45,351 nt of DNA, from IMG/VR virus record IMGVR_UViG_3300028384_000673, positions 1 through 45,351 of that record, one strand, 5' to 3'. Of the stretch, positions 19,224-30,961 are shown in pieces. Position 1 is the first letter of the stretch, and each line of letters begins with the position of its first letter. This DNA comes from a virus. A program made the position numbers and the translations under genes. The notes beneath the pieces are model-generated. The model ran no database searches and was not told the DNA's origin. It was given only the letters and a program-made list of their open reading frames with translations.

Positions 19224-19925
19224 ATGCCTTTACCCAAACTTGCAGTGCCTGAATACGACTGCAAACTGCCTGTTAGTGGGCAGAAAGTCTCTTACCGTCC
19301 TTTTCTTGTAAAAGAAGAGAAACTGCTGTATCTCGCTATGGAGACACAGAAAGAGAAAGAGATGATCAAAGCGGTCAAGAATATCCTCAAAGCATGTACT
19401 GACCTCAAAAGTGTAGATTCACTTCCTACCTTTGAACTTGAATATCTGTTCTTGCAGATTCGTTCTAAGGCAGTTGGTGAGACTAGTGAATTCAAGATCG
19501 TCTGTCAAGATGATGGAGAAACTGAGGTTGAAATTGAACTGAACCTCAATGATATTGAAGTTCAGATTCCTAAGGATCATAAGAAGATCGTCGCTCTCAC
19601 TGATGAAGTGAAGATTCAAATGAAGTATCCTGCTCTGGATGCTTTCGTTGAGCGTAACATGACTGATGATCCCGACATCGAGGATGTCTTTGAACTTGCA
19701 GCATCATGTATCGATAAAGTATACGATGGTGATGAAATCTTTGACTCTTTCACTAAGAAAGAAGCAACTGACTTCATCGGTGAAATGAATAATGAACAGT
19801 TCGCCAAGATTCAAAAGTTCTTTGAAACTATGCCCAAACTGTCCCACACTATGGTAGTTACTAATCCCAAAACGGGAGTAGATAATGAAATCGTGTTGGA
19901 AGGACTGGCATCTTTTTTCGCATAG
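19224..19925 (+). CDS. gp26: baseplate hub assembly chaperone (ends in a slippery site)
   Basis: MPLPKL, YRPFLVKEEK, EYLFLQIRSKAVGE, FFETMP, LEGLASFF. Confidence 0.88.
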   Translation: MPLPKLAVPEYDCKLPVSGQKVSYRPFLVKEEKLLYLAMETQKEKEMIKAVKNILKACTDLKSVDSLPTFELEYLFLQIRSKAVGETSEFKIVCQDDGETEVEIELNLNDIEVQIPKDHKKIVALTDEVKIQMKYPALDAFVERNMTDDPDIEDVFELAASCIDKVYDGDEIFDSFTKKEATDFIGEMNNEQFAKIQKFFETMPKLSHTMVVTNPKTGVDNEIVLEGLASFFA

Positions 19926-19930
19926 CATTG

Positions 19931-20116
19931 ATGCATGATAGTCTTATGAATCACTATAAGACTAACTTTGCATTAATGCAACATCATAAGTACAGTCTAA
20001 CTGAACTTAATGACATGATGCCTTGGGAACGTGACGTTTACGTCAACCTTTTGATTGCACACCTAGCAGAAGAAGAGAGACGTATGAACAAAAACGATAA
20101 CAGCGTACCACTCTAA
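19931..20116 (+). CDS. gp51: gp51-like baseplate hub assembly protein; possibly the -1 frameshift extension of gp26
   Basis: NFALMQHHKYSLTELNDMMPWER; frame is open back to the T6 run at 19913. Confidence 0.8.
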   Translation: MHDSLMNHYKTNFALMQHHKYSLTELNDMMPWERDVYVNLLIAHLAEEERRMNKNDNSVPL

Positions 20117-22863
20117 TGGCAGCAACGCTTAGAAAATACCTTAGTGTAAAACCAACAAGCGGTAGTGGGTCTCTAAATGAGGCAGTAAAGACTATCACAG
20201 TCGCCCACAACCGACTTGGTGGTGCCATTACATATATGGGTCAGCAAGTTATTGACTTCAAAGAAGTCTTTAATATCCATAGAGATTTCACTCTGGATTA
20301 CTTCAAGAGTGAGCAAGAATTATTACAAAAAGAGCACGAATTTAAGCAAGAATTAATTGAGAAGAAGACCGATATTCTTGGTAGAAAGAAAGGACTAGAA
20401 CAGGATAAGAAAGCAGAAGAACAGCAAGAAAAAGTAACAGATAAGCAGGCAAAAGATCAAGGTAAGAAGTTAGCGAAGAAAGAGAAGAAGAAGTTTGGTT
20501 GGTTCAAAGCATTCTTTGATGGATTAAAACCAATATTTGAGGTTATCGCTCAATACGTAGCAATTTTTGCTGCTTACCAGTTTATGGACTGGTTGAGTGA
20601 TCCGAAGAATAAGAAAGCGATTGAGACGATCACACGTTTTGTTGGTGCGTTGTGGTCATTCAGCAGGAAACTTGCTGAATTTGGTATCAATAATGTCATG
20701 GATGGTATCACGAGAGTGTTTACCGATGATCCAACCAAAGAAGGCGTAGCAGAAGTCTTCGATGACATGTTTGGTGTTCTTCAAATCATTGGAGGACTTG
20801 CAGGACTGTGGGCAGCATCTCGTGTGCTGATGCCATGGAAACTGATTGGTGATGTGAAGTTCATGACCAGTCTTGGTCGTGCTGTTTCTGTTGCAGAAGA
20901 AACTGACGGTGGTGGCAAGAAAGGGAGACCCAAATCTAAACCAGATAAGAAACTCAAAGCAAAGAGACCCCAAGCAAAGACGAAGAAACCCAAAGCACCC
21001 AAAGTTAGTCCCAAAGGAAAGGGTGTATTTGGACGCACTTTTGATGGTCTGAGAAACTTTGGATCAAAAGCAAAGAGAAACATTTTTGCAGCAGGTAGTG
21101 CAGTTAAGAACGTCTCTGTTGGTGCAATCAATTTTATTGGAGACAAAGCAAGAGGTCTCTGGTCTGGTGCTAAGGAGTTTGCTGGATCTGCATGGAAGCA
21201 AGGTGAAAAGATTGCTAAATCTATCGGCAATCTTGCAGAACTCGCCAAAGATCCGAAGAAACTTGGACAAGTCGTAAAATCAAAATTAAAAGCATCCTTA
21301 CAAGGCGTCGTTGAAAAGAACGACACTATTAAGAAAATTAAGGATGTTGCCAAGAATCCGAAAGGGTCAGGTAAGAAGTTAATTGTTGACCTCTTCAAAG
21401 GTGCAATTAAGAATCCAGGATTTAAGAATTTCAGAGAGTTCTTGGGTGGTGTCAAGGCAAACTTCAAGATCGGTGGTATTGATACTGTTATCGCCGCTTT
21501 GCTGGGTTTGCTTGATTATGGTATGTTCGGTGAGTCACCTATCAACGCTATTGTTAATGCATTAGCAGGTCTGCTTGGGTATTCTGCTGGTTTTGCTATT
21601 GGTGCTCCCTTCGGTGGTGTCCCTGGTTTCATTACTGGTGCTGCTGGTGCATTTGCTGGTGAATGGATTGGTAACAAACTGTTGGAAGGTTTGGGTACAG
21701 CATTCCCAAATCTCTTAGAAATTGATGATCCTGTCGCCAAAATGATCGCTGAGAGTGGTGAAGGTGGATTCAATGAGATGTTCAAGAATCGCAAACTGCT
21801 GCGTGATCCTAGTACCGAAATGCCTGGGTTTGAGGAAGCAGCAGAACAAGAACTCGCCGCAGGTGGTTCGATTCATCCATATCTAACTAAAATGGATGAT
21901 CAGAATATCAAAAAAGCATATGCTCCAATAGGAAGGTGTGTTACAGGTAGTCTTGATACTATGTTGAAGAGTGGAGTTCCTGAACCCGCTGCTACTGGAA
22001 ATGATGTTGGTAACAATCCCCGAGGTGCAATTTCTCAGTTGATGCAAGCACCTTTTAACTGGAAGAGCATGGGTGGCGCTTCTAAGACACTTAATAGTCC
22101 ATATGGTACTGTTCAAGCAGGTGTTTATACTAAGAATCAGTATGGAGAATTAGTAAATAGCGGTAAAGTTCCTTCTGGTGCATTAGTATTCCAGTCTAGG
22201 TATAACGATTGGAACGGAACTGCTAAGAATAGTAGTGGTTATGATATGGCGATTGCTCAGAAAGGTGGTAAAGAGCACTGGAATGGGCAAAAGATGCCAC
22301 AATATGTTTATGGTGGTTCAACTAAAAAGATTATTGTTTTGACTCCAAATGGCAAGAAAGGAGATGGTAAATCTGCACCTATAATCGGTAAGGATGAATC
22401 GACGAGTGATCAAATTACACCAGGTGAGGCACCATCTGGTACTGATTATGCTACTGGACTTACGGGAGTAGAATCTCCATCAGTAGCAGGTGAAACTACA
22501 CCCCAACCACCTAGCAAACCGATGACTGCCATGGAGGCATTTCAGTCGGTTGGTGGATTGGATATGCTCAATTCATTCCTGGGTGATATTGGAGGATCCG
22601 ATTTAGGTCGGAGTGGTTTTGGCACAAGTCCCAGTCCCAGTCCCGTTGCTACACCTACGGAGATAAAGCAAGAGGAATCCCTAATAAATACCAAGAGTAG
22701 TCAACTTGCAACAGCATCAGCAGATAAGGTGAGAAGAGATAAGCAACAAGGTCAAGCAAATACTGCTGTTCTGATGTATAGACAACAGATTGGTGTCCCT
22801 GGTCCACCAGGAACACAAGTTGTTAAGTCATCTCCTTCACCATCACCTTTGGTTATTAAGTAA
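20116..22863 (+). CDS. tape-measure-like protein 1 with a papain-fold amidase-like domain
   Basis: coiled N-terminus, amphipathic and glycine-zipper segments, LAAGG, GRCVTG...GALVFQ; follows gp26/gp51. Confidence 0.65.
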   Translation: MAATLRKYLSVKPTSGSGSLNEAVKTITVAHNRLGGAITYMGQQVIDFKEVFNIHRDFTLDYFKSEQELLQKEHEFKQELIEKKTDILGRKKGLEQDKKAEEQQEKVTDKQAKDQGKKLAKKEKKKFGWFKAFFDGLKPIFEVIAQYVAIFAAYQFMDWLSDPKNKKAIETITRFVGALWSFSRKLAEFGINNVMDGITRVFTDDPTKEGVAEVFDDMFGVLQIIGGLAGLWAASRVLMPWKLIGDVKFMTSLGRAVSVAEETDGGGKKGRPKSKPDKKLKAKRPQAKTKKPKAPKVSPKGKGVFGRTFDGLRNFGSKAKRNIFAAGSAVKNVSVGAINFIGDKARGLWSGAKEFAGSAWKQGEKIAKSIGNLAELAKDPKKLGQVVKSKLKASLQGVVEKNDTIKKIKDVAKNPKGSGKKLIVDLFKGAIKNPGFKNFREFLGGVKANFKIGGIDTVIAALLGLLDYGMFGESPINAIVNALAGLLGYSAGFAIGAPFGGVPGFITGAAGAFAGEWIGNKLLEGLGTAFPNLLEIDDPVAKMIAESGEGGFNEMFKNRKLLRDPSTEMPGFEEAAEQELAAGGSIHPYLTKMDDQNIKKAYAPIGRCVTGSLDTMLKSGVPEPAATGNDVGNNPRGAISQLMQAPFNWKSMGGASKTLNSPYGTVQAGVYTKNQYGELVNSGKVPSGALVFQSRYNDWNGTAKNSSGYDMAIAQKGGKEHWNGQKMPQYVYGGSTKKIIVLTPNGKKGDGKSAPIIGKDESTSDQITPGEAPSGTDYATGLTGVESPSVAGETTPQPPSKPMTAMEAFQSVGGLDMLNSFLGDIGGSDLGRSGFGTSPSPSPVATPTEIKQEESLINTKSSQLATASADKVRRDKQQGQANTAVLMYRQQIGVPGPPGTQVVKSSPSPSPLVIK

Positions 22864-25352
22864 TGGCACAGGCAAGACTATATAAAATGATCACACCTCC
22901 CAAACTCAGTGGAAGGGGAGGAGGAATCACTGTAAAGATTGGTGGTAAGACTGTCACATCTCCTGCTGACGGATTTAGAAAGAATGTATCGGCAATCAAT
23001 AGTCTTGGTGCAACTATCAATAGTATTGCTATTGTCCTAGAAGAACTCAAAGAGTCTTTTGCTAGTTACACTTTCCAGCACATGAGTTTGTTGGAAAGTA
23101 TCAGAGACATGAGAGAGGATCACCTCTTGGATGAGAAGACTCGTCTTAAAAATGTCGAAAAAGAGGAAAGAAGAGAAGAAGGACTACGACAAGACACACA
23201 AGCAGAGGAGAAGCAAGAAAAGATAAAACCAAAGAACAATAGTGTCATTAATGGTGCTAAGGCAGTAGCAAAGACCTCTCTGGGTTTCTTTGAAGCATTA
23301 GCATCATTGTTTGACGGTATCTTCAAATCTCTGGTGGTCTACCAGTTGATGGATTGGTTGGGAAAGAAAGAAAATAGAAAGAAAGTTGAACGATTATTAA
23401 GCACCATCAAAACGATGGTAAAGTGGTTTGCTGAGAAGGCAGCATTTGTAATTAGTTTTGGATTAGAAGGTCTGACTGATTTTCTTGAAAATCCACTAAG
23501 TTTTGAAGGTATATTTGGTTTAGTTAAATTCCTCGGTGTTCTGGGTGCAGTATTTGCCCCAGTTGCCATGATAAAACTGGGTCTCCTTGGTGCTGGTGGT
23601 GTTTTAACACTATTCCGCAAGGGTGGACTATTCAAGGCAATTAAAGGTCTCTTCCGAGGTATTGGGGGAATGATCAAGGGTCTTATAGGATTTGTTAAAG
23701 GCAGAGGACTTGGTGGTCTTCTGGTAGGTGCAGCAGTGCTTGGTGCTGGTGTTGGTCTTAGTTATATGCTTGGATCGAATGAAGAAGAAGAAGAAGATCT
23801 CGAACCTGACACAGAAGAACCTGCCACACCGATGTCGAAGGGCGGTAAAATTCCAGAACTGGCAAAGGGTGGTTGGATTACTGGTCCTCAGTCTGGATAT
23901 CCCGTGTCTCTGGATGGTGGAAAGTCCACGTCATTCATTGGTCATGGAACTGAATATGTTGCAACTAGATCTGCTGGTGGTGGACTAGGTGCAGGATTCG
24001 TTGTACCATTTGATACTCCTGCAACTAAAAAAGATCCTGGTTTGACTTCACGTCGTATCGGTGAAGCAACTGGTAAAGGATTTAGTTTACCTAAGTTCGC
24101 TAGTGGCGGTGAAGCAACTGGTAAAGGTAAAGGATTTAGTTTACCTAAGTTCGCCAGCGGTGGTGAAGCAACTGGTAAAGGATTTAGTTTACCTAAGTTC
24201 GCCAGCGGTGGTGATATGGACTTCTTGGGCAATCTGTCTCGTGCCATGGGTGGCATGTTGCAGACGTTTAGACCTCCCGAGTATGCTGCTGGTGGTCTCC
24301 TTGATTTCATCGCATCTGGTGAAGGTGGATATAACTCCATGAATCAGGGTACGATTGGTAATAGTATTGTTGGTTCTACTCACGATTCTTCTTCCATTAT
24401 TGGTAAGAAACTCACCGACATGACAGTTAGTGAAATTATAAAGCGTCAGGATTATCTGATGAATCCTTCCAATCCACAAAAGAGTAACTATGGTGCTTTT
24501 GCTGTGGGTCGCTATCAGGTTATTCCTGGTACTATGAAGACCATCGTGAAGCAGATGGGTATTGATAAGAACCAGAAGTTTGATAAGAAACTCCAAGATA
24601 AGATTGGTATGGGATTGATCCAATACAAGAGACCTTACGCTTGGGATTATATCAAAGGAAAGCATAATGATAGAGCAGGTGCTATGAAGGCACTTGCAGC
24701 AGAGTGGGCGTCTCTACCTGATCCTGCAACAGGTAAATCCATGTATGGAGGTGGCAATGCATCCTCACATACTGTTGGTGAGGTTGCTGCCGCTCTGGAC
24801 GCTGCTAGGGGCGGTGCTCCGATGGTCTCTGATGATCCTAATATGAATCTAGCATCAGCATCACCTTCTGCTGGGGGTGCTACTGCTCTTGCTGGTGCTA
24901 CTGCTCCTGGTGGTGCTACTGCTCCTGCTGGTGCTGCTGGTTCCCCAAGTGCAAGTGCTCCGCCACCTGCACCTATGTCTACTGAGGACGCTATTGCTAG
25001 TGCTCAACCTAAAAAACCCATGACTGCCGCAGAGGCATTCCAACAAATGGGTGGTGTAGATCTTCTGAATCAATATCTTGCCGATATTGGTGGGATGGAT
25101 AAGAATAACTCTGGTGAGAAACTTAGTCAAGCAGAATTAAAAGAGAAAGAAAAACAAGCAGAGGGTGGTGCTGGCGGCAAAGTAAGTGTCCAAGCAACAG
25201 ATCTTCCTCCTGTTCAACCACCAGTTATAGAACCTCCACCGCCAGTTGCAGCAGGTGGTTCTGGTGAATACATAGTTCCAGCAAATGAATATCTGCAACC
25301 TCGTTTTGGTTTATTCTCTGACCTATCATCTACTGCTCGTGAATTAACATGA
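22863..25352 (+). CDS. tape-measure-like protein 2 with a lambda-lysozyme-like domain
   Basis: LLDFIASGEGGYN, AVGRYQ, QDK, EWASLP; multiple xAxGG motifs. Confidence 0.7.
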   Translation: MAQARLYKMITPPKLSGRGGGITVKIGGKTVTSPADGFRKNVSAINSLGATINSIAIVLEELKESFASYTFQHMSLLESIRDMREDHLLDEKTRLKNVEKEERREEGLRQDTQAEEKQEKIKPKNNSVINGAKAVAKTSLGFFEALASLFDGIFKSLVVYQLMDWLGKKENRKKVERLLSTIKTMVKWFAEKAAFVISFGLEGLTDFLENPLSFEGIFGLVKFLGVLGAVFAPVAMIKLGLLGAGGVLTLFRKGGLFKAIKGLFRGIGGMIKGLIGFVKGRGLGGLLVGAAVLGAGVGLSYMLGSNEEEEEDLEPDTEEPATPMSKGGKIPELAKGGWITGPQSGYPVSLDGGKSTSFIGHGTEYVATRSAGGGLGAGFVVPFDTPATKKDPGLTSRRIGEATGKGFSLPKFASGGEATGKGKGFSLPKFASGGEATGKGFSLPKFASGGDMDFLGNLSRAMGGMLQTFRPPEYAAGGLLDFIASGEGGYNSMNQGTIGNSIVGSTHDSSSIIGKKLTDMTVSEIIKRQDYLMNPSNPQKSNYGAFAVGRYQVIPGTMKTIVKQMGIDKNQKFDKKLQDKIGMGLIQYKRPYAWDYIKGKHNDRAGAMKALAAEWASLPDPATGKSMYGGGNASSHTVGEVAAALDAARGGAPMVSDDPNMNLASASPSAGGATALAGATAPGGATAPAGAAGSPSASAPPPAPMSTEDAIASAQPKKPMTAAEAFQQMGGVDLLNQYLADIGGMDKNNSGEKLSQAELKEKEKQAEGGAGGKVSVQATDLPPVQPPVIEPPPPVAAGGSGEYIVPANEYLQPRFGLFSDLSSTARELT
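24060..24209 (+). repeat. three in-frame tandem repeats (48/54/48 nt)
   Basis: GGTGAAGCAACTGGTAAAGG(TAAAGG)ATTTAGTTTACCTAAGTTCGC..., encoding GEATGKGFSLPKFASG. Confidence 0.95.
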
Positions 25353-26971
25353 CAACAGCAAAATCCTTCAAACTAAGTAAAGTTGATGTTATTTTTGCTG
25401 ATGGTAGTAAATCAGACATCAGAGATTTGGTAGGTGAGTTTAATTGGTTTGAATCTATTGATTCTCCTTTTATTAGATGCGACTTCGCTATTCTGGATTC
25501 TATTCAATTTGATGATAATCTCTTAGGTAGTGAACTGATAGATATTACCTTTGAATCTTATGCTGGAACGGCATCAGATACATCTAAGACTTATAACAAA
25601 AGAACTAAGAAAGAAGTTATCAAGCATCAACTACAAATCTATAAGATTGGTAGTGTTGTGAAGCAAGAGCGTGTCAAGATGTATATCTTACACACTGCAT
25701 CACCTGAAATCTATAAGAACGAATCTGAGAGAGCATTTGGTCAATTTGGTCCAGCGTCTGGTCGTGCCGACATCGTAGAACGCATGTTGTTGAAGAATCT
25801 AGATGCCAATAAGAAGAAACTGTATATTGAAGGATATTCAAAGATGAATGTCTTATCTCCTAGTTGGCGTCCTGTTGATCTGATTAGTTATATTTCAGAT
25901 AAGGTTGTAAGAACTGATGCATCCAATAAAAAGAAGAGATCAATGCAGAAGGGCGGTAATGCTCAATCTGGATTCTTGTTTTTTGAAAACAGACTTGGGT
26001 GGAACTTCTTGTCTATGGATTATCTGTGTGAGCAGGATCCTGCAATAACATATATCTATGCACAGTCTAATGTAAATGATAACTCTGCTGCTGCCAATGC
26101 ATATACTATTGAGAACATTAAGTTCCCTGATAGAGCAAATCAATTAGAAAAATTAAGATTGGGTGTGTACAAAAGTGTCACCCATGGTATCTCTATGTCT
26201 CAATCAACTGATAGTCATACGACACAACCAGGTGCTTCTAGTAGTTTGCAGTTTGATAACTATTTCCGAACGCTTGGAGATGATTATGAACCACCAGCAA
26301 CTGATGAATTGAATAGTCTTAGTGCTGATCAATTAAAGAAACTGTACAATAAAGAGGAGACACAAGAGAACAGATTCTTTACTGCTGGTCTTGATAAATC
26401 TTGGTCATGGGAGCCTCAAAAAACAGGCAAGAAAGGTACAAGAACTGACAAACAGATTGAGGTTGACGAGAAACTAGGTAAACCATCAGGAACAATCACT
26501 GGACCTCACGTCTCCAATATCTTCTCGGTATTTCAAAAAGCATCTACGATTCATAAAGGATTTCCTTACGAACCAGATAAAGCAGAAGCAATTACGAAGT
26601 TGCATCCAACTAGAACTAAATTTAAGATTCTTCCTACTAATATAAATCAAACCGCTAGTGCCCCCAATGGTGGTGCTGATCAAGCACCTGTTAATGTGAT
26701 TCAAGCAGCAGCATACTCAGCAGCACGTTGGAGTCTTCTTAATACGCATACCCTGACAATAACGGTGCCAGGCAATACAGCACTGTACGCTGGTGCTATC
26801 ATCAAAGTGAAGTTACCATCATCTCAACAGAAAGGATCTAAAAAGGTCAAACGTGATGAGATGTATAGCGGTAACTATCTGATCAAGGGATTGCGTCATC
26901 TTTGGAAGAAAGACGGTATTACAACTGAATTGTTCCTGTGTAGGGACTCTCTCCCAGTGTCAGATAAATAA
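25349..26971 (+). CDS. baseplate hub protein (gp27/GpD-like)
   Basis: FESIDSPF, FLFFE, TVPGNTALYAG, YSGNYLI...H; synteny. Confidence 0.7.
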   Translation: MTTAKSFKLSKVDVIFADGSKSDIRDLVGEFNWFESIDSPFIRCDFAILDSIQFDDNLLGSELIDITFESYAGTASDTSKTYNKRTKKEVIKHQLQIYKIGSVVKQERVKMYILHTASPEIYKNESERAFGQFGPASGRADIVERMLLKNLDANKKKLYIEGYSKMNVLSPSWRPVDLISYISDKVVRTDASNKKKRSMQKGGNAQSGFLFFENRLGWNFLSMDYLCEQDPAITYIYAQSNVNDNSAAANAYTIENIKFPDRANQLEKLRLGVYKSVTHGISMSQSTDSHTTQPGASSSLQFDNYFRTLGDDYEPPATDELNSLSADQLKKLYNKEETQENRFFTAGLDKSWSWEPQKTGKKGTRTDKQIEVDEKLGKPSGTITGPHVSNIFSVFQKASTIHKGFPYEPDKAEAITKLHPTRTKFKILPTNINQTASAPNGGADQAPVNVIQAAAYSAARWSLLNTHTLTITVPGNTALYAGAIIKVKLPSSQQKGSKKVKRDEMYSGNYLIKGLRHLWKKDGITTELFLCRDSLPVSDK

Positions 26972-27295: not shown

Positions 27296-27901
27296 ATGAT
27301 TGGTGAATACATCGATATTGATGCCCCATTCTCTTTTATTGGTGGTGGTATAATGGAACCTGAGATCTGTGATGGTCTCATTGAGTTCTGGCACGACTGT
27401 GACTATTTGGAGAAGACTCCTGGTCACAGTGGTGGTGCTAATGGCGGTAAAGGTGGTGTTGATAAAACTATCAAAGATAGTATTGATATGACTATTCCTA
27501 GGTATCATAAAGATCCTAGGATTCTAAACTTCATCGACGGTCTTGGTGAAATCACACGTGAGTATGTCAATTATTGGCCTATGTTGCGTACGATTCACTG
27601 GGATCTGATGGAGGATTTTAATATGCAGTGGTATCCTCCTGGTGGTGGATTCCATATGATGCATTGTGAACGTAATAGCGCACATCCTGAGTGTGTACGA
27701 CGTGTCATGGCATGGATGACATACCTAAATGATATTGAGGAAGGTGGTGAAACTTTCTTCGATGTTCAGAACTGTAAGGTTAAACCAAAGAAAGGATTGA
27801 CTCTTATTTGGCCTGCTGACTGGACACATTTTCATAAAGGTATAGCAGCACCCAATGAAGAAAAGATTATTGTGACTGGTTGGTATGACCTCATTATTTG
27901 A
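27296..27901 (+). CDS. 2OG-Fe(II) oxygenase
   Basis: HCE, YLND..EGGET.F, WP..WTH.H.G, K. Confidence 0.9.
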   Translation: MIGEYIDIDAPFSFIGGGIMEPEICDGLIEFWHDCDYLEKTPGHSGGANGGKGGVDKTIKDSIDMTIPRYHKDPRILNFIDGLGEITREYVNYWPMLRTIHWDLMEDFNMQWYPPGGGFHMMHCERNSAHPECVRRVMAWMTYLNDIEEGGETFFDVQNCKVKPKKGLTLIWPADWTHFHKGIAAPNEEKIIVTGWYDLII

Positions 27902-28373
27902 AAGAATGATCCTGGGACATTATCGCAACAGGAGACAAGCATTTACTGATCCTAGTAAATGGCCTCAAATCAACATCTTGTATACCAAAATTGGTGAAAA
28001 TGTGTTAGAATTAAAGCAATGGTACAACTACGAATCAGAAGATAAACCATATCGACACTATCACGTCAACTGTGAATATATTGGTGGTGATACTGTTATT
28101 ACACATCCAATCAATCAAGAAACTGGTGAACCTGGGTGTGATCTTGAATGGGGTTACTTTGATGGTTGGTGGTTTGGTCAAATTAGAGGTGAATGTATCC
28201 TAAGAAACACAAAAGTAATTTCAGAGATTCAATTCAACGGTGACTTGTATATGTCTCGTGATACAGGATATGACATTGAAACAGGTAAGTTCTCTTGGGG
28301 TAAAGAACCAGAAGAGGGTTTATTTGAATTTGACCGACTAAATAATGGAAGGCAACTAGACTTTACACTTTAA
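27885..28373 (+). CDS. cpeT: phycobiliprotein lyase, T-type
   Basis: N..QAF..P, PYR, SRDTGYD..TGK..WG, FEF. Confidence 0.85.
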   Translation: MTSLFERMILGHYRNRRQAFTDPSKWPQINILYTKIGENVLELKQWYNYESEDKPYRHYHVNCEYIGGDTVITHPINQETGEPGCDLEWGYFDGWWFGQIRGECILRNTKVISEIQFNGDLYMSRDTGYDIETGKFSWGKEPEEGLFEFDRLNNGRQLDFTL

Positions 28374-28375
28374 TA

Positions 28376-30961
28376 ATGTCACTCGGAACAAAGACAGATT
28401 TTGCTGGCAGAGATGGATTTCACTGGTGGATTGGTGAAGTAGAGGATCATATGGATCCTGCCCAACTGGGTAGAGTCAAGGTTCGTATTATTGGTTGGTA
28501 TACTGATAGTAAGACTCGTGAAGATGGATCTGGTAGTTATCTACAAACGTTGCCAACGGAGATGTTACCTTGGGCAACTGTTCTGCTGCCTACTGATAAA
28601 CCCCAGACAAAGAACGCTGGTACAACAACTGAACTACAACCTGGTGCTCAGGTTCTTGGATTCTTCCTTGATGGTGAAGAAGCACAGTTGCCTTGTGTGA
28701 TGGGTTCTTTCCGTTCTTTCCGTAAACCTGAGGGCAATCCTTCTGGTCAGGATAGTCGTGGATCAGATAATGAAATGTCACGCACAATGGTGGCAGATCC
28801 GAAGATAGCGAACGAGAACGCTACTGACACCGCAACACAGAAGAGTTATAATAACGAACCTGCACTTGGTGGTCACCCCTTTGCGAAATCGCAGGGTCAA
28901 ACTCCTGGTAGTATTACTGGCGGTGAAGAAGCATCTCGTGGTGCTGTTAGTAGAGCAGAAGTAGAAACACCATTTAACGTCTTTACTAATCCTATTGGTG
29001 TGCCTTCCATGGAAGGTGGTATCGCTAATGGTTTCAAGGGTCCTTTGGATGATGGATTCATGAAGGACTTGAAGCGTATGCTTACTGAAATGGGAATGGC
29101 AGTTGGTAGTGTTGCTAAGAGTAGTGATGGCAACATGGTATCTGCTATTACTGGTCATGTAATTCAGGGAAAGGCAATCCTCAATCAACTGAGTAATCTT
29201 ACTAACTTCATTACTAATGCCATCTCTGGTATGCTTGCGCCATTCAAGGAATGGTTGGCACAGCAAATGCAACAGGCAATCGAGACTTTGATGGGTCTTG
29301 TGTCTAGTTTTGTTCCTCTGGTCATCGTCAAGAAGATCATGGACATCATCAACCAGATCATTTCTGAGATTTTCTGTGCTGAACCTCCTGGTTTCCTGAC
29401 AGCAATATCAGATATTATGGGGGATCTAGGAGGGTTCATGGATAGTATCATGGACTTTGTTTTAGATCAAATTGATAATATGATTGCTGGTGTTCTCGAC
29501 TTTGTTGAGAAGGCAATGTCTGGTATTCAAAGACAGATCTGTAAAGCACTTAACAAGTTCAACAAGATTGCTGATATAGTTTTGGGTGCATTGAATACTT
29601 TCAAGCAAGCAGGTAAGGCGATTGAAGATCTCAAAAATATGAAAGAGATCTTCCAACTGAACTTCTCTGCTCTGAACTGGGGTTCTGTTCTTGATATTAT
29701 CGCTGCTATTGTTGGTATTATTGCTGGTTTTGTTAAGTGTGGAAGGAAAGTACGAGAACCAAGATCTAAGGGGTGGTTACCACTATTAGGGACCACAGAA
29801 TGTAGTAATATCGGTGATGCTCTGGGTGGTCCTGGTGGTGGTGACTATGGAGATTGTGGATCAGATTCTTTTGGTGGATCGGCAGGTGGCAATATCTTTG
29901 ATTCTTACTTCCAAGAGATGAACCCATTCTTGATGCAGACTCAGCAGTTCTTGAATGGTGCAAGAGATATTGATGATGCAACTCCTGGTAAAGAAAAGCG
30001 TGTCCGTTCTGGTCCTGGTGGTGTTACTACATTTGAAGATAAGCGTGGTAACCAACACAAGAACGTTCCCAATAATGAAACTGCTATCTATGGTCGTGAT
30101 CTAGTACAGAATGTTAAGAATAATCTTGTTCATACTATCGAGGGTGATTACTATCTGAAAGTGATGGGTGACTTCCATCTTGAAGTTGCTGGTTCTGTTA
30201 ATGAGCACACATCTAATGGTCCTAGTGCAAAAGCAGAAGCAAAAGGTGGAAAGAAAGGTTTCTTTGGTGGAAAGAGCGATAAGTGGTTAGATCAAACTAT
30301 TAGTTCTGCACTGAAATCTGCTGGTGGTGGTAAGAACTTTAATGTTAAGACTGGTCAGAAAGAAGCAAAATCTGCCCAAACCAAAGCAGGTGACCATGAT
30401 ATTTCCTATCAGGGTGACATCACTATCCAGGGTTCACGTATTGAATTGAAAGGTATCAATGCTATCAATATTGACGCACCTGAGGTTAATACTAGTGCTA
30501 ACGCTATTTCTCTGAAAGCAACTGGTGAGATCATTAACGAAGCAAACTGGATCACATCTTTCCTTGCATGTGGTAGATTTGACATCGTTGGTATCTTCTC
30601 CTCTGCTCTTACTAGTGCTGTTACAGGTCAGTACAGTTTGGTGAAAGGTGCTATTGTGGATGTGGCAATGGACTTGCCTTTTCCTGGTCCGACCCCCGCA
30701 TCTCAGATCCGTATGACTGTTGGTCAAAATAGTCCTTCCGCCATGGCAGACATCGTTACTGGTGGATCTCCTGGTGCTCACATGACCATGGTAGCCACTT
30801 CAACAGGTGGCATCGGTGAGATTGTCACGGGCGGACAAGGTGCTATTATTAATCAGGTGACGACTGGTCTCGTATCCTATGGTGTGGGTACTGGTCTCGC
30901 TGCTCTGGGTTCGGGTCTCGGTCCAACTCAGATTTATGGTCTCCCTGTGATGCTCAACTAA
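28376..30961 (+). CDS. gp5: baseplate hub/spike protein (no lysozyme domain evident)
   Basis: WWIGEVE..DP..LGRVKVRI.G, LPWA, GFFLDG...QLP OB-fold; later beta-helix-type repeats. Confidence 0.85.
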   Translation: MSLGTKTDFAGRDGFHWWIGEVEDHMDPAQLGRVKVRIIGWYTDSKTREDGSGSYLQTLPTEMLPWATVLLPTDKPQTKNAGTTTELQPGAQVLGFFLDGEEAQLPCVMGSFRSFRKPEGNPSGQDSRGSDNEMSRTMVADPKIANENATDTATQKSYNNEPALGGHPFAKSQGQTPGSITGGEEASRGAVSRAEVETPFNVFTNPIGVPSMEGGIANGFKGPLDDGFMKDLKRMLTEMGMAVGSVAKSSDGNMVSAITGHVIQGKAILNQLSNLTNFITNAISGMLAPFKEWLAQQMQQAIETLMGLVSSFVPLVIVKKIMDIINQIISEIFCAEPPGFLTAISDIMGDLGGFMDSIMDFVLDQIDNMIAGVLDFVEKAMSGIQRQICKALNKFNKIADIVLGALNTFKQAGKAIEDLKNMKEIFQLNFSALNWGSVLDIIAAIVGIIAGFVKCGRKVREPRSKGWLPLLGTTECSNIGDALGGPGGGDYGDCGSDSFGGSAGGNIFDSYFQEMNPFLMQTQQFLNGARDIDDATPGKEKRVRSGPGGVTTFEDKRGNQHKNVPNNETAIYGRDLVQNVKNNLVHTIEGDYYLKVMGDFHLEVAGSVNEHTSNGPSAKAEAKGGKKGFFGGKSDKWLDQTISSALKSAGGGKNFNVKTGQKEAKSAQTKAGDHDISYQGDITIQGSRIELKGINAINIDAPEVNTSANAISLKATGEIINEANWITSFLACGRFDIVGIFSSALTSAVTGQYSLVKGAIVDVAMDLPFPGPTPASQIRMTVGQNSPSAMADIVTGGSPGAHMTMVATSTGGIGEIVTGGQGAIINQVTTGLVSYGVGTGLAALGSGLGPTQIYGLPVMLN

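Follow-up and report, generated by a model that had tools for sequence, protein, structure and literature searches.

The DNA considered here, 45,351 nucleotides (nt) in length and called the window below, comprises positions 1 to 45,351 of virus record IMGVR_UViG_3300028384_000673 of IMG/VR. In it a gene related to gene 26 of phage T4 is followed by a short open reading frame (ORF), the counterpart of which is annotated in relatives as a separate minigene, 'gp51 / baseplate hub assembly catalyst'. The locus thus raises the question of whether these are two genes or the two parts of one. A reading made from the letters of the DNA, without database searches (the sequence-only reading), had proposed that a -1 ribosomal frameshift fuses gp26 to 'gp51' in the manner of the G/GT genes of phage lambda. 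The observations that bear on the question concern sequence features, conservation, homology and a predicted fold. They support the proposal: among homologues the frame relationship is fixed, the run of T at the junction is invariant, and no stops intervene. It is likely that a programmed -1 ribosomal frameshift, as deduced from these sequences, joins the gp26-like gene to 'gp51' as the short and long forms of a tail assembly chaperone (TAC).

All features of the locus lie on the + strand. The gp26-like gene (19224-19925), which would encode the short form (TAC-N), is an ORF of 233 amino acids (aa) with its TAG stop codon at 19923-19925. Its 3′ end reads TCT (19911-19913) TTT TTC GCA TAG and contains the heptamer T TTT TTC (19913-19919), a slippery sequence of the form X XXY YYZ and the predicted site of the shift. 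In the -1 frame the bases from the heptamer onward read TTT TTT CGC ATA GCA TTG ATG, and this frame remains open until the TAA at 20114-20116. The -1 frame extension (19919-20116; 65 codons and the TAA) would make up the C-terminal portion of the long form (TAC-NC), giving a predicted fusion of 232 + 65 = 297 aa. The short form would end in ...EGLASFFA. The fusion would instead run ...EGLASFFR and then IALMHDSLMNHYK, reading ...SFF-RIALMHDSL... across the junction, and a peptide begun at the ATG usually called as the start of 'gp51' (19931-19933) would start MHDSLMNHYK. The TAA of the extension overlaps, as TAATG, the ATG of the next gene (20116-22863), which in the ORF list is the first of two large tape-measure-like genes. 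The end of the ORF, the position of the heptamer, the open -1 frame, the 297-aa fusion and the TAATG coupling had all been described in the sequence-only reading, and all are confirmed in the sequence.

Conservation of the heptamer and of the -1 frame

Homologous loci were collected from IMG/VR by the gp26 protein (80 loci) and by a divergent homologue (80 more), and from 14 isolate genomes; the scored set contains 145 distinct homologous loci, to which the counts below refer unless another number is given. Every one has a T6N heptamer at the same position, which is TTTTTTC in 132, TTTTTTT in 7, TTTTTTA in 5 and TTTTTTG in 1. No locus shows a synonymous disruption of the T-run, and stops between the heptamer and the conserved extension were found in none. 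Among the 54 unique loci closest to the window, T TTT TTC is unchanged throughout. The codon that supplies the first base of the heptamer is AGT, GAT, TCT, GCT or AAT; the amino acid varies and the final T is constant. In the first 84 loci, which span 50-100% protein identity, the gene ends NNT TTT TTC GNN TAG, and the 'gp51' homologue lies in the -1 frame in all 84, so that the frame relationship is fixed rather than variable. One locus has its 0-frame stop eight codons later, and there too the heptamer is kept.

The arrangement extends to T4-like phages that are not cyanophages. A T-rich heptamer, followed by the conserved extension without a start codon of its own, is found in nine of ten such isolates: Methylophilales phage Melnitz, phage C48C1, Ochrobactrum phage vB_OspM_OC, Nitratidesulfovibrio phage SRB7757, Stenotrophomonas phage YB07, Aeromonas phage P19, Rhizobium phage LG08, Vibrio phage VH7D and Sinorhizobium phage phiM9. 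The heptamer of phiM9 is T TTT TTG, as in phage P2. The exception is Vibrio phage K413 (OZ196581.1, ~1770-1995), where the gene ends TCA CTT TTC AAG TAA with no heptamer and an ATG overlaps the stop codon (TAATG). In K413 the extension may be made as a separate, translationally coupled peptide.

It might be supposed that the T-run is only a pair of Phe codons and that the open -1 frame beside it is a coincidence or an artefact of annotation. Phe-Phe is indeed conserved as protein, even in T4 gp26. But the seven conserved nucleotides cover a silent position in a variable codon, and the four-fold and third codon positions next to the heptamer are saturated with changes. In these genes, moreover, just 55% of Phe codons are TTT and just 51% of Ser and Ala codons end in T. 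As judged from the aligned loci, conservation of the heptamer is far beyond chance. The extension itself is conserved for 60-70 aa, and the same pattern recurs across several phage families; chance is scarcely a credible explanation.

Both conservation of the -1 frame and its 3-base periodicity start at the heptamer. From that point onward the conserved peptide is FFR-[IVL]-[AG]-L-x-H-x-x-L-x-x-[YF][YF]-x-x-NF...PWE[RK]..Y, and its R-I/V/L-A/G-L-x-H segment is conserved upstream of any start codon. The base at +8 varies freely; in the -1 frame a change there leaves Arg as it is, but in the 0 frame it alters Ala, Gly or Glu. Selection thus switches frame exactly at the heptamer. Upstream of the heptamer the -1 frame contains a start codon in none of the loci and is closed within 0-42 nt.

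These observations bear directly on the possibility that 'gp51' is a separate small gene, its 61-aa product being made from the ATG at 19931 by re-initiation after the TAG at 19923, with no fusion. In the window's clade this ATG lies 6 nt after the stop, GenBank records annotate such a gene, and the TAATG overlap of K413, in a locus without the heptamer, indicates that coupling occurs in the family. In most other clades, however, the aligned position of ATG 19931 is not an ATG. In 55 of the 145 loci an ATG first appears +12 to +18 nt past the heptamer; in the other 90 it is either missing or first met within the conserved domain, at +42 to +105 nt. Since the first 42 nt of these 90 loci lack an ATG, what is annotated as the 'gp51' minigene is in most cases a fragment. 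Protein selection in the -1 frame acts on the codons that separate the heptamer from the ATG, and in the window the ATG is buried in a stem of -26 kcal/mol. T4 gp51, furthermore, has the extension fused to a gp26-like domain. A separate gene would also leave the invariant heptamer unexplained, and we consider it an unlikely account of the locus. The sequence-only reading had made a point of the missing Shine-Dalgarno (SD) sequence before the 'gp51' ATG. None is present there, but the observation is uninformative because the start of gp26 has none either.

None of 13 annotated GenBank records joins the two ORFs; the records omit the second ORF or start it at varied internal ATGs, as a 'baseplate hub assembly catalyst' of 34-63 aa.

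Downstream structure and the predicted slip

The sequence-only reading had noticed a 9-bp stem at 19939-19964. The stem is real, but it proves to be merely the inner part of a longer hairpin at 19925-19979, a probable stimulator of frameshifting, in which an outer stem (19925-19935 with 19969-19979) encloses an inner one (19939-19948 with 19955-19964). The 55-nt hairpin starts 5 nt past the heptamer, and its 5′ arm buries the ATG at 19931. Its minimum free energy is -26.1 kcal/mol, with a z score of -5.0; one of 200 dinucleotide shuffles folded as well. Within the window's clade 18 sequences retain the hairpin, two of its pairs having changed on both sides; most other clades lack it.

Of 113 distinct downstream segments, 25 are strongly structured (z below -3). 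Most of the 25 belong to two clades whose sequences are unrelated, and in each of these clades the helix begins 5 nt after the heptamer. A stable helix after a 5-nt spacer is the classical layout for -1 ribosomal frameshifting. In the second clade (loci L133-L172, with the extension FFRISMAHEDLE) the structure is an unrelated 11-bp hairpin, exemplified by L143:1308-1365; the folded 76-nt segment that contains it has an energy of -25.6 kcal/mol and a z score of -4.0. Its positions pair in 92.9% of cells, compared with 22-46% for slid controls. For one pair the sequences show U-A, G-C and A-U; since the 3′ base of this pair is a second codon position, the protein switches among Glu, Ala and Val to keep the RNA pair.

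UUN codons and all-pyrimidine heptamers are described in PMC4066793 as among the more shift-prone motifs in E. coli; no measured value for U UUU UUC itself was found in its text. The SD-like GGAAGGA to which the sequence-only reading drew attention is present at 19898-19904, 8 nt 5′ of the heptamer, and may stimulate the shift. Within it GA[AG]GG is invariant in 54 distinct relatives, with G (33) or A (21) at the silent third position, a split that gives no clear sign of selection on the nucleotides. Because these bases encode a conserved Glu-Gly, a stimulatory role cannot be told from constraint on the protein.

The same 297-aa product would arise if RNA polymerase added an extra U in the U6 run, and the conserved element is, after all, a homopolymer. 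Some public proteins could be taken as traces of such transcriptional slippage. Seven database entries (P0122, P0124, P0126, P0128, P0129, P0130 and P0139) are in-frame gp26-gp51 fusions of 294-299 aa, each with one or two members from one contig, and P0129 (...SFFLIAL...) reads as if its run were one T longer. When longer proteins with the extension were sought, 21 were found, mostly single-member clusters on single contigs, and several of them combine PF12322 with PF28602 in 294-299 aa. But efficient bacterial slippage usually needs runs of 8-9 bases or more, and the run here is of six bases, rarely seven, and never longer in the 145 loci. Nor does slippage have any need of two independent hairpins at a 5-nt spacing, one of them with compensatory changes. 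The fused proteins are singletons. The relatives of P0130 in IMG/VR all retain the usual stop and heptamer, and P0130 itself is already in the -1 frame a few codons ahead of the heptamer, as if its contig had gained or lost 1 nt. The rare fusions therefore look like sequencing errors or rare variants and not like a fused lineage. A metatranscriptome contig crosses the site with no insertion, a weak point since contigs hide rare variants. Transcriptional slippage seems to us quite improbable.

If the shift is ribosomal, most ribosomes would end at the TAG at 19923 and release the 233-aa TAC-N. A fraction would slip back by one base: the P-site tRNA-Phe, paired to UUU, and the A-site tRNA-Phe, paired to UUC, would both re-pair to UUU UUU. 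These ribosomes would continue in the -1 frame to the TAA at 20114 and so produce the 297-aa TAC-NC, the last 65 residues of which would correspond to the 'gp51' of genome records. In the window's clade the 55-nt hairpin probably promotes the slip, and GGAAGGA may add to its effect. That the shift occurs on the ribosome, how efficient it is and what part its products take in assembly are the elements of this scheme that we infer.

Probable chaperone identity and gene neighbourhood

The 233-aa protein belongs to the Pfam family PF12322 (T4_baseplate), which it matches over residues 9-233 with 242.7 bits against a cut-off of 24.5, and to the PHROG family phrog_150 (baseplate hub; E 3.8e-77). A single copy of PF12322 occurs in the 111.6-kb record, which is estimated to be 60% complete. 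For the short ORF downstream the matches are phrog_634 ('baseplate hub assembly catalyst'; E 1.6e-27) and, in phrog_150, which is the family of gp26 itself, the C-terminal 40 positions. A Pfam scan yielded no model for the extension, for which a precomputed table lists the newer family PF28602; an NCBIfam search gave no useful match.

For modelling with AlphaFold (AF2), the natural in-frame homologue P0122 was used in place of the window's fusion, with 115 aligned rows. In the model (pLDDT 90.8) the N-terminal region is alpha/beta, and residues 229-297 form a helical extension after it. In a wide VIA-align search of 48,161 representative PDB chains, the three best matches all fell on residues 1-95: 3fgx_B, an uncharacterised protein of Bacillus stearothermophilus (Z 7.3); 2ob9_B, the HK97 tail assembly chaperone (Z 7.1; root-mean-square deviation 4.0 over 84 residues); and 3klu_A, YqbN (Z 7.0). 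The next match had a Z of 5.1. Pell and colleagues (2013) reportedly treated 3fgx and 3klu as tail assembly chaperones too. Foldseek comparison of the model with the PDB gave no match, and a sequence profile run against the PDB gave no useful one. The predicted model is supportive of an HK97-like chaperone fold for the N-terminal domain.

A role in assembly would be expected because of this similarity in fold to the HK97 chaperone and because of homology to T4 gp26 and gp51. The short and long forms would be expected to act together in assembly of the hub and tail tube around the tape-measure-like proteins, and neither would be expected to stay in the virion.

The surroundings of the locus are consistent with such a role. 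Genes similar to gp48 and gp53, on the other strand, are followed in order by genes for head closure, a DNA end protector, a tail-tube-like protein (phrog_45), the chaperone locus, two tape-measure-like proteins, and proteins similar to gp27 and gp5; by these matches the neighbourhood is a T4-type hub module. The phrog_45 gene is directly upstream of the locus, and the genes for proteins of 915 and 829 aa are directly downstream. The product of 20116-22863 matches, in PHROG, just families of unknown function or labelled 'endolysin', and its gene is a candidate for the tape measure by its size and position. The nearest isolates are the Kyanoviridae S-WAM1, S-SZBM1 and P-RSM6, at 72-77% DNA identity.

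Several other features of this region and of the chaperone family deserve mention. The products of the tandem genes at 20116-25352 (915 and 829 aa) have PHROG families in common in their N-terminal parts, and a C-terminal motif, KPMTAxEAFQ..GG.D.LN..L.DIGG, is almost the same in both. Genes similar to 2OG-Fe(II) oxygenases and to CpeT (27296-28373) lie between the gp27-like gene (25349-26971) and the gp5-like hub/lysozyme gene (28376-30961). Homologues of the chaperone in phages other than cyanophages have a pair of Cys residues near the C terminus (CPKCG, CKKCG or CVHCK), and T4 gp26 has CPECG with CTCG upstream; the pattern suggests a zinc ribbon. The cyanophage proteins have lost the C-terminal pair, and that of the window reads NPKTG in its place.

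Several considerations weigh against a programmed frameshift that serves a chaperone. Convincing downstream structure is lacking in about three quarters of the clades, so that the stimulator is not general. The long product is a prediction from the sequence. An RNA-library contig spans 19511-20135 with no insertion or deletion; contigs hide rare events, and this one is no proof of transcription. The closeness of the ATG to the TAG, 6 nt away in the window's clade, also counts on this side, and some independent or re-initiated translation of the 61-aa peptide may occur in that clade. The fold match is modest (Z about 7). Finally, the two large downstream proteins show no BLASTP similarity to T4 gp29, and no tape measure family matched them.

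T4 and comparable systems

T4 itself offers an instructive variation. Both gp26 (208 aa) and gp51 (249 aa) of T4 belong to PF12322, with 215.6 and 177.5 bits, and gp51 has an extension like the window's -1 peptide. This peptide aligns to residues 200-244 of T4 gp51, from the F-R of the shift site, with an E value of 2e-5; gp51 has ~48 extra C-terminal residues, and the phrog_634 match covers its residues 147-246. T4 gp51 is thus collinear with the predicted fusion, and the T4 pair is the two-gene version of the predicted short and long forms. T4 differs in that its two genes are divergently transcribed and involve no frameshift, and its proteins have ~26-28% identity to those of the window. 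Two PF12322 genes are present in T4, and one each in the window's record, VH7D, P19, phiM9 and YB07. The 3′ end of T4 gene 26 reads GAG TTC TTT GAG TTA CTA TAA (...KEFFELL), in which Phe-Phe is kept and the T-run is broken. It looks like a decayed slip site; this is the one lineage in which the T-run is broken, and with a separate gene for the long form, gene 51, it presumably has no need of the run. T4 gp26 and gp51 appear as hub assembly chaperones in Table 2 of PMC3004832.

A broader scheme can be put forward tentatively, and it is possible rather than probable. Outside the T4 genus group, frameshifting would be the sole source of gp51 function across several T4-like families. Different RNA devices would fix the balance of the two forms in each clade, two unrelated hairpins having arisen 5 nt from the heptamer and other clades having none, and the two-gene layout of T4 would be derived, its slip site having been let decay. 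Whatever the merits of this scheme, slip sites with the long hairpin, with the other hairpin or with none, together with the coupling in K413 and the two genes of T4, form a natural series and provide material on the tuning of frameshifting in marine cyanobacteria.

The conceptual weight of the finding is small, since frameshifting in TAC genes has been known since lambda G/GT; its practical weight, for annotation, is greater. Because no record joins the two ORFs, hundreds of genomes of cyanophages and other T4-like phages would carry a wrong model of a core tail gene. Possible novelties, each of them incremental, are the quantitative comparison of 145 loci, the finding that two independent hairpins share one spacing, and the apparent decay of the slip site in T4 gene 26.

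Among systems outside the T4-like phages, E. coli dnaX resembles the window's locus in having a heptamer with a 3′ hairpin a few bases further on and, possibly, an upstream SD-like element about 8-10 nt away. It differs in its heptamer, A AAA AAG, and in being a different gene, and the SD-like bases of the window are explained by the conserved Glu-Gly codons. The E / E+E' genes of P2 are similar in belonging to a myovirus, in their T-rich heptamer (T TTT TTG) and in lying directly upstream of the tape measure gene T. The sequence-only reading went further and likened the extension to P2 E'. This likeness was not borne out by BLASTP or hhalign, neither of which gave significant similarity; by eye the two share just an SLTEL pentapeptide and then a Trp.

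In lambda, too, a short form (gpG) and a long form (gpGT) arise, through a -1 shift close to where the first ORF ends, and the second ORF lacks its own start. The G/GT gene sits between the genes for the tail tube and the tape measure; at the window's locus a tail-tube-like gene is upstream and a tape-measure-like gene downstream. Lambda differs in slipping on G GGA AAG, and the N-terminal domain of the window's protein is about twice the size of gpG. Between the window's extension and lambda T no similarity was detectable by BLASTP or hhalign. Conservation of the -1 frameshift among tail assembly chaperone genes was reportedly described by Levin and colleagues in 1993 and by Xu, Hendrix and Duda in 2004.

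The T4-like phages have a TAC system of their own in the literature. The sequence-only reading had called the system hidden, a description that does not hold: papers that cite Vladimirov, Gautam and Davidson (Virology 2022, 566:9-15, PMID 34826709) already attribute to them the TAC genes and poly-T slip sites of T4-like phages (PMC10885494, PMC12846349). One says that the TAC-N genes of these phages are known to contain poly-T slip sequences (PMC12846349); according to the other, some T4-like phages have a short gene and a separate long fused gene in place of frameshifting (PMC10885494). As these citing papers present it, the phenomenon has been published for T4-like phages, and the window's locus is an unannotated case of it: the TAC-N/TAC-NC system that they describe gives the same picture as was found here.

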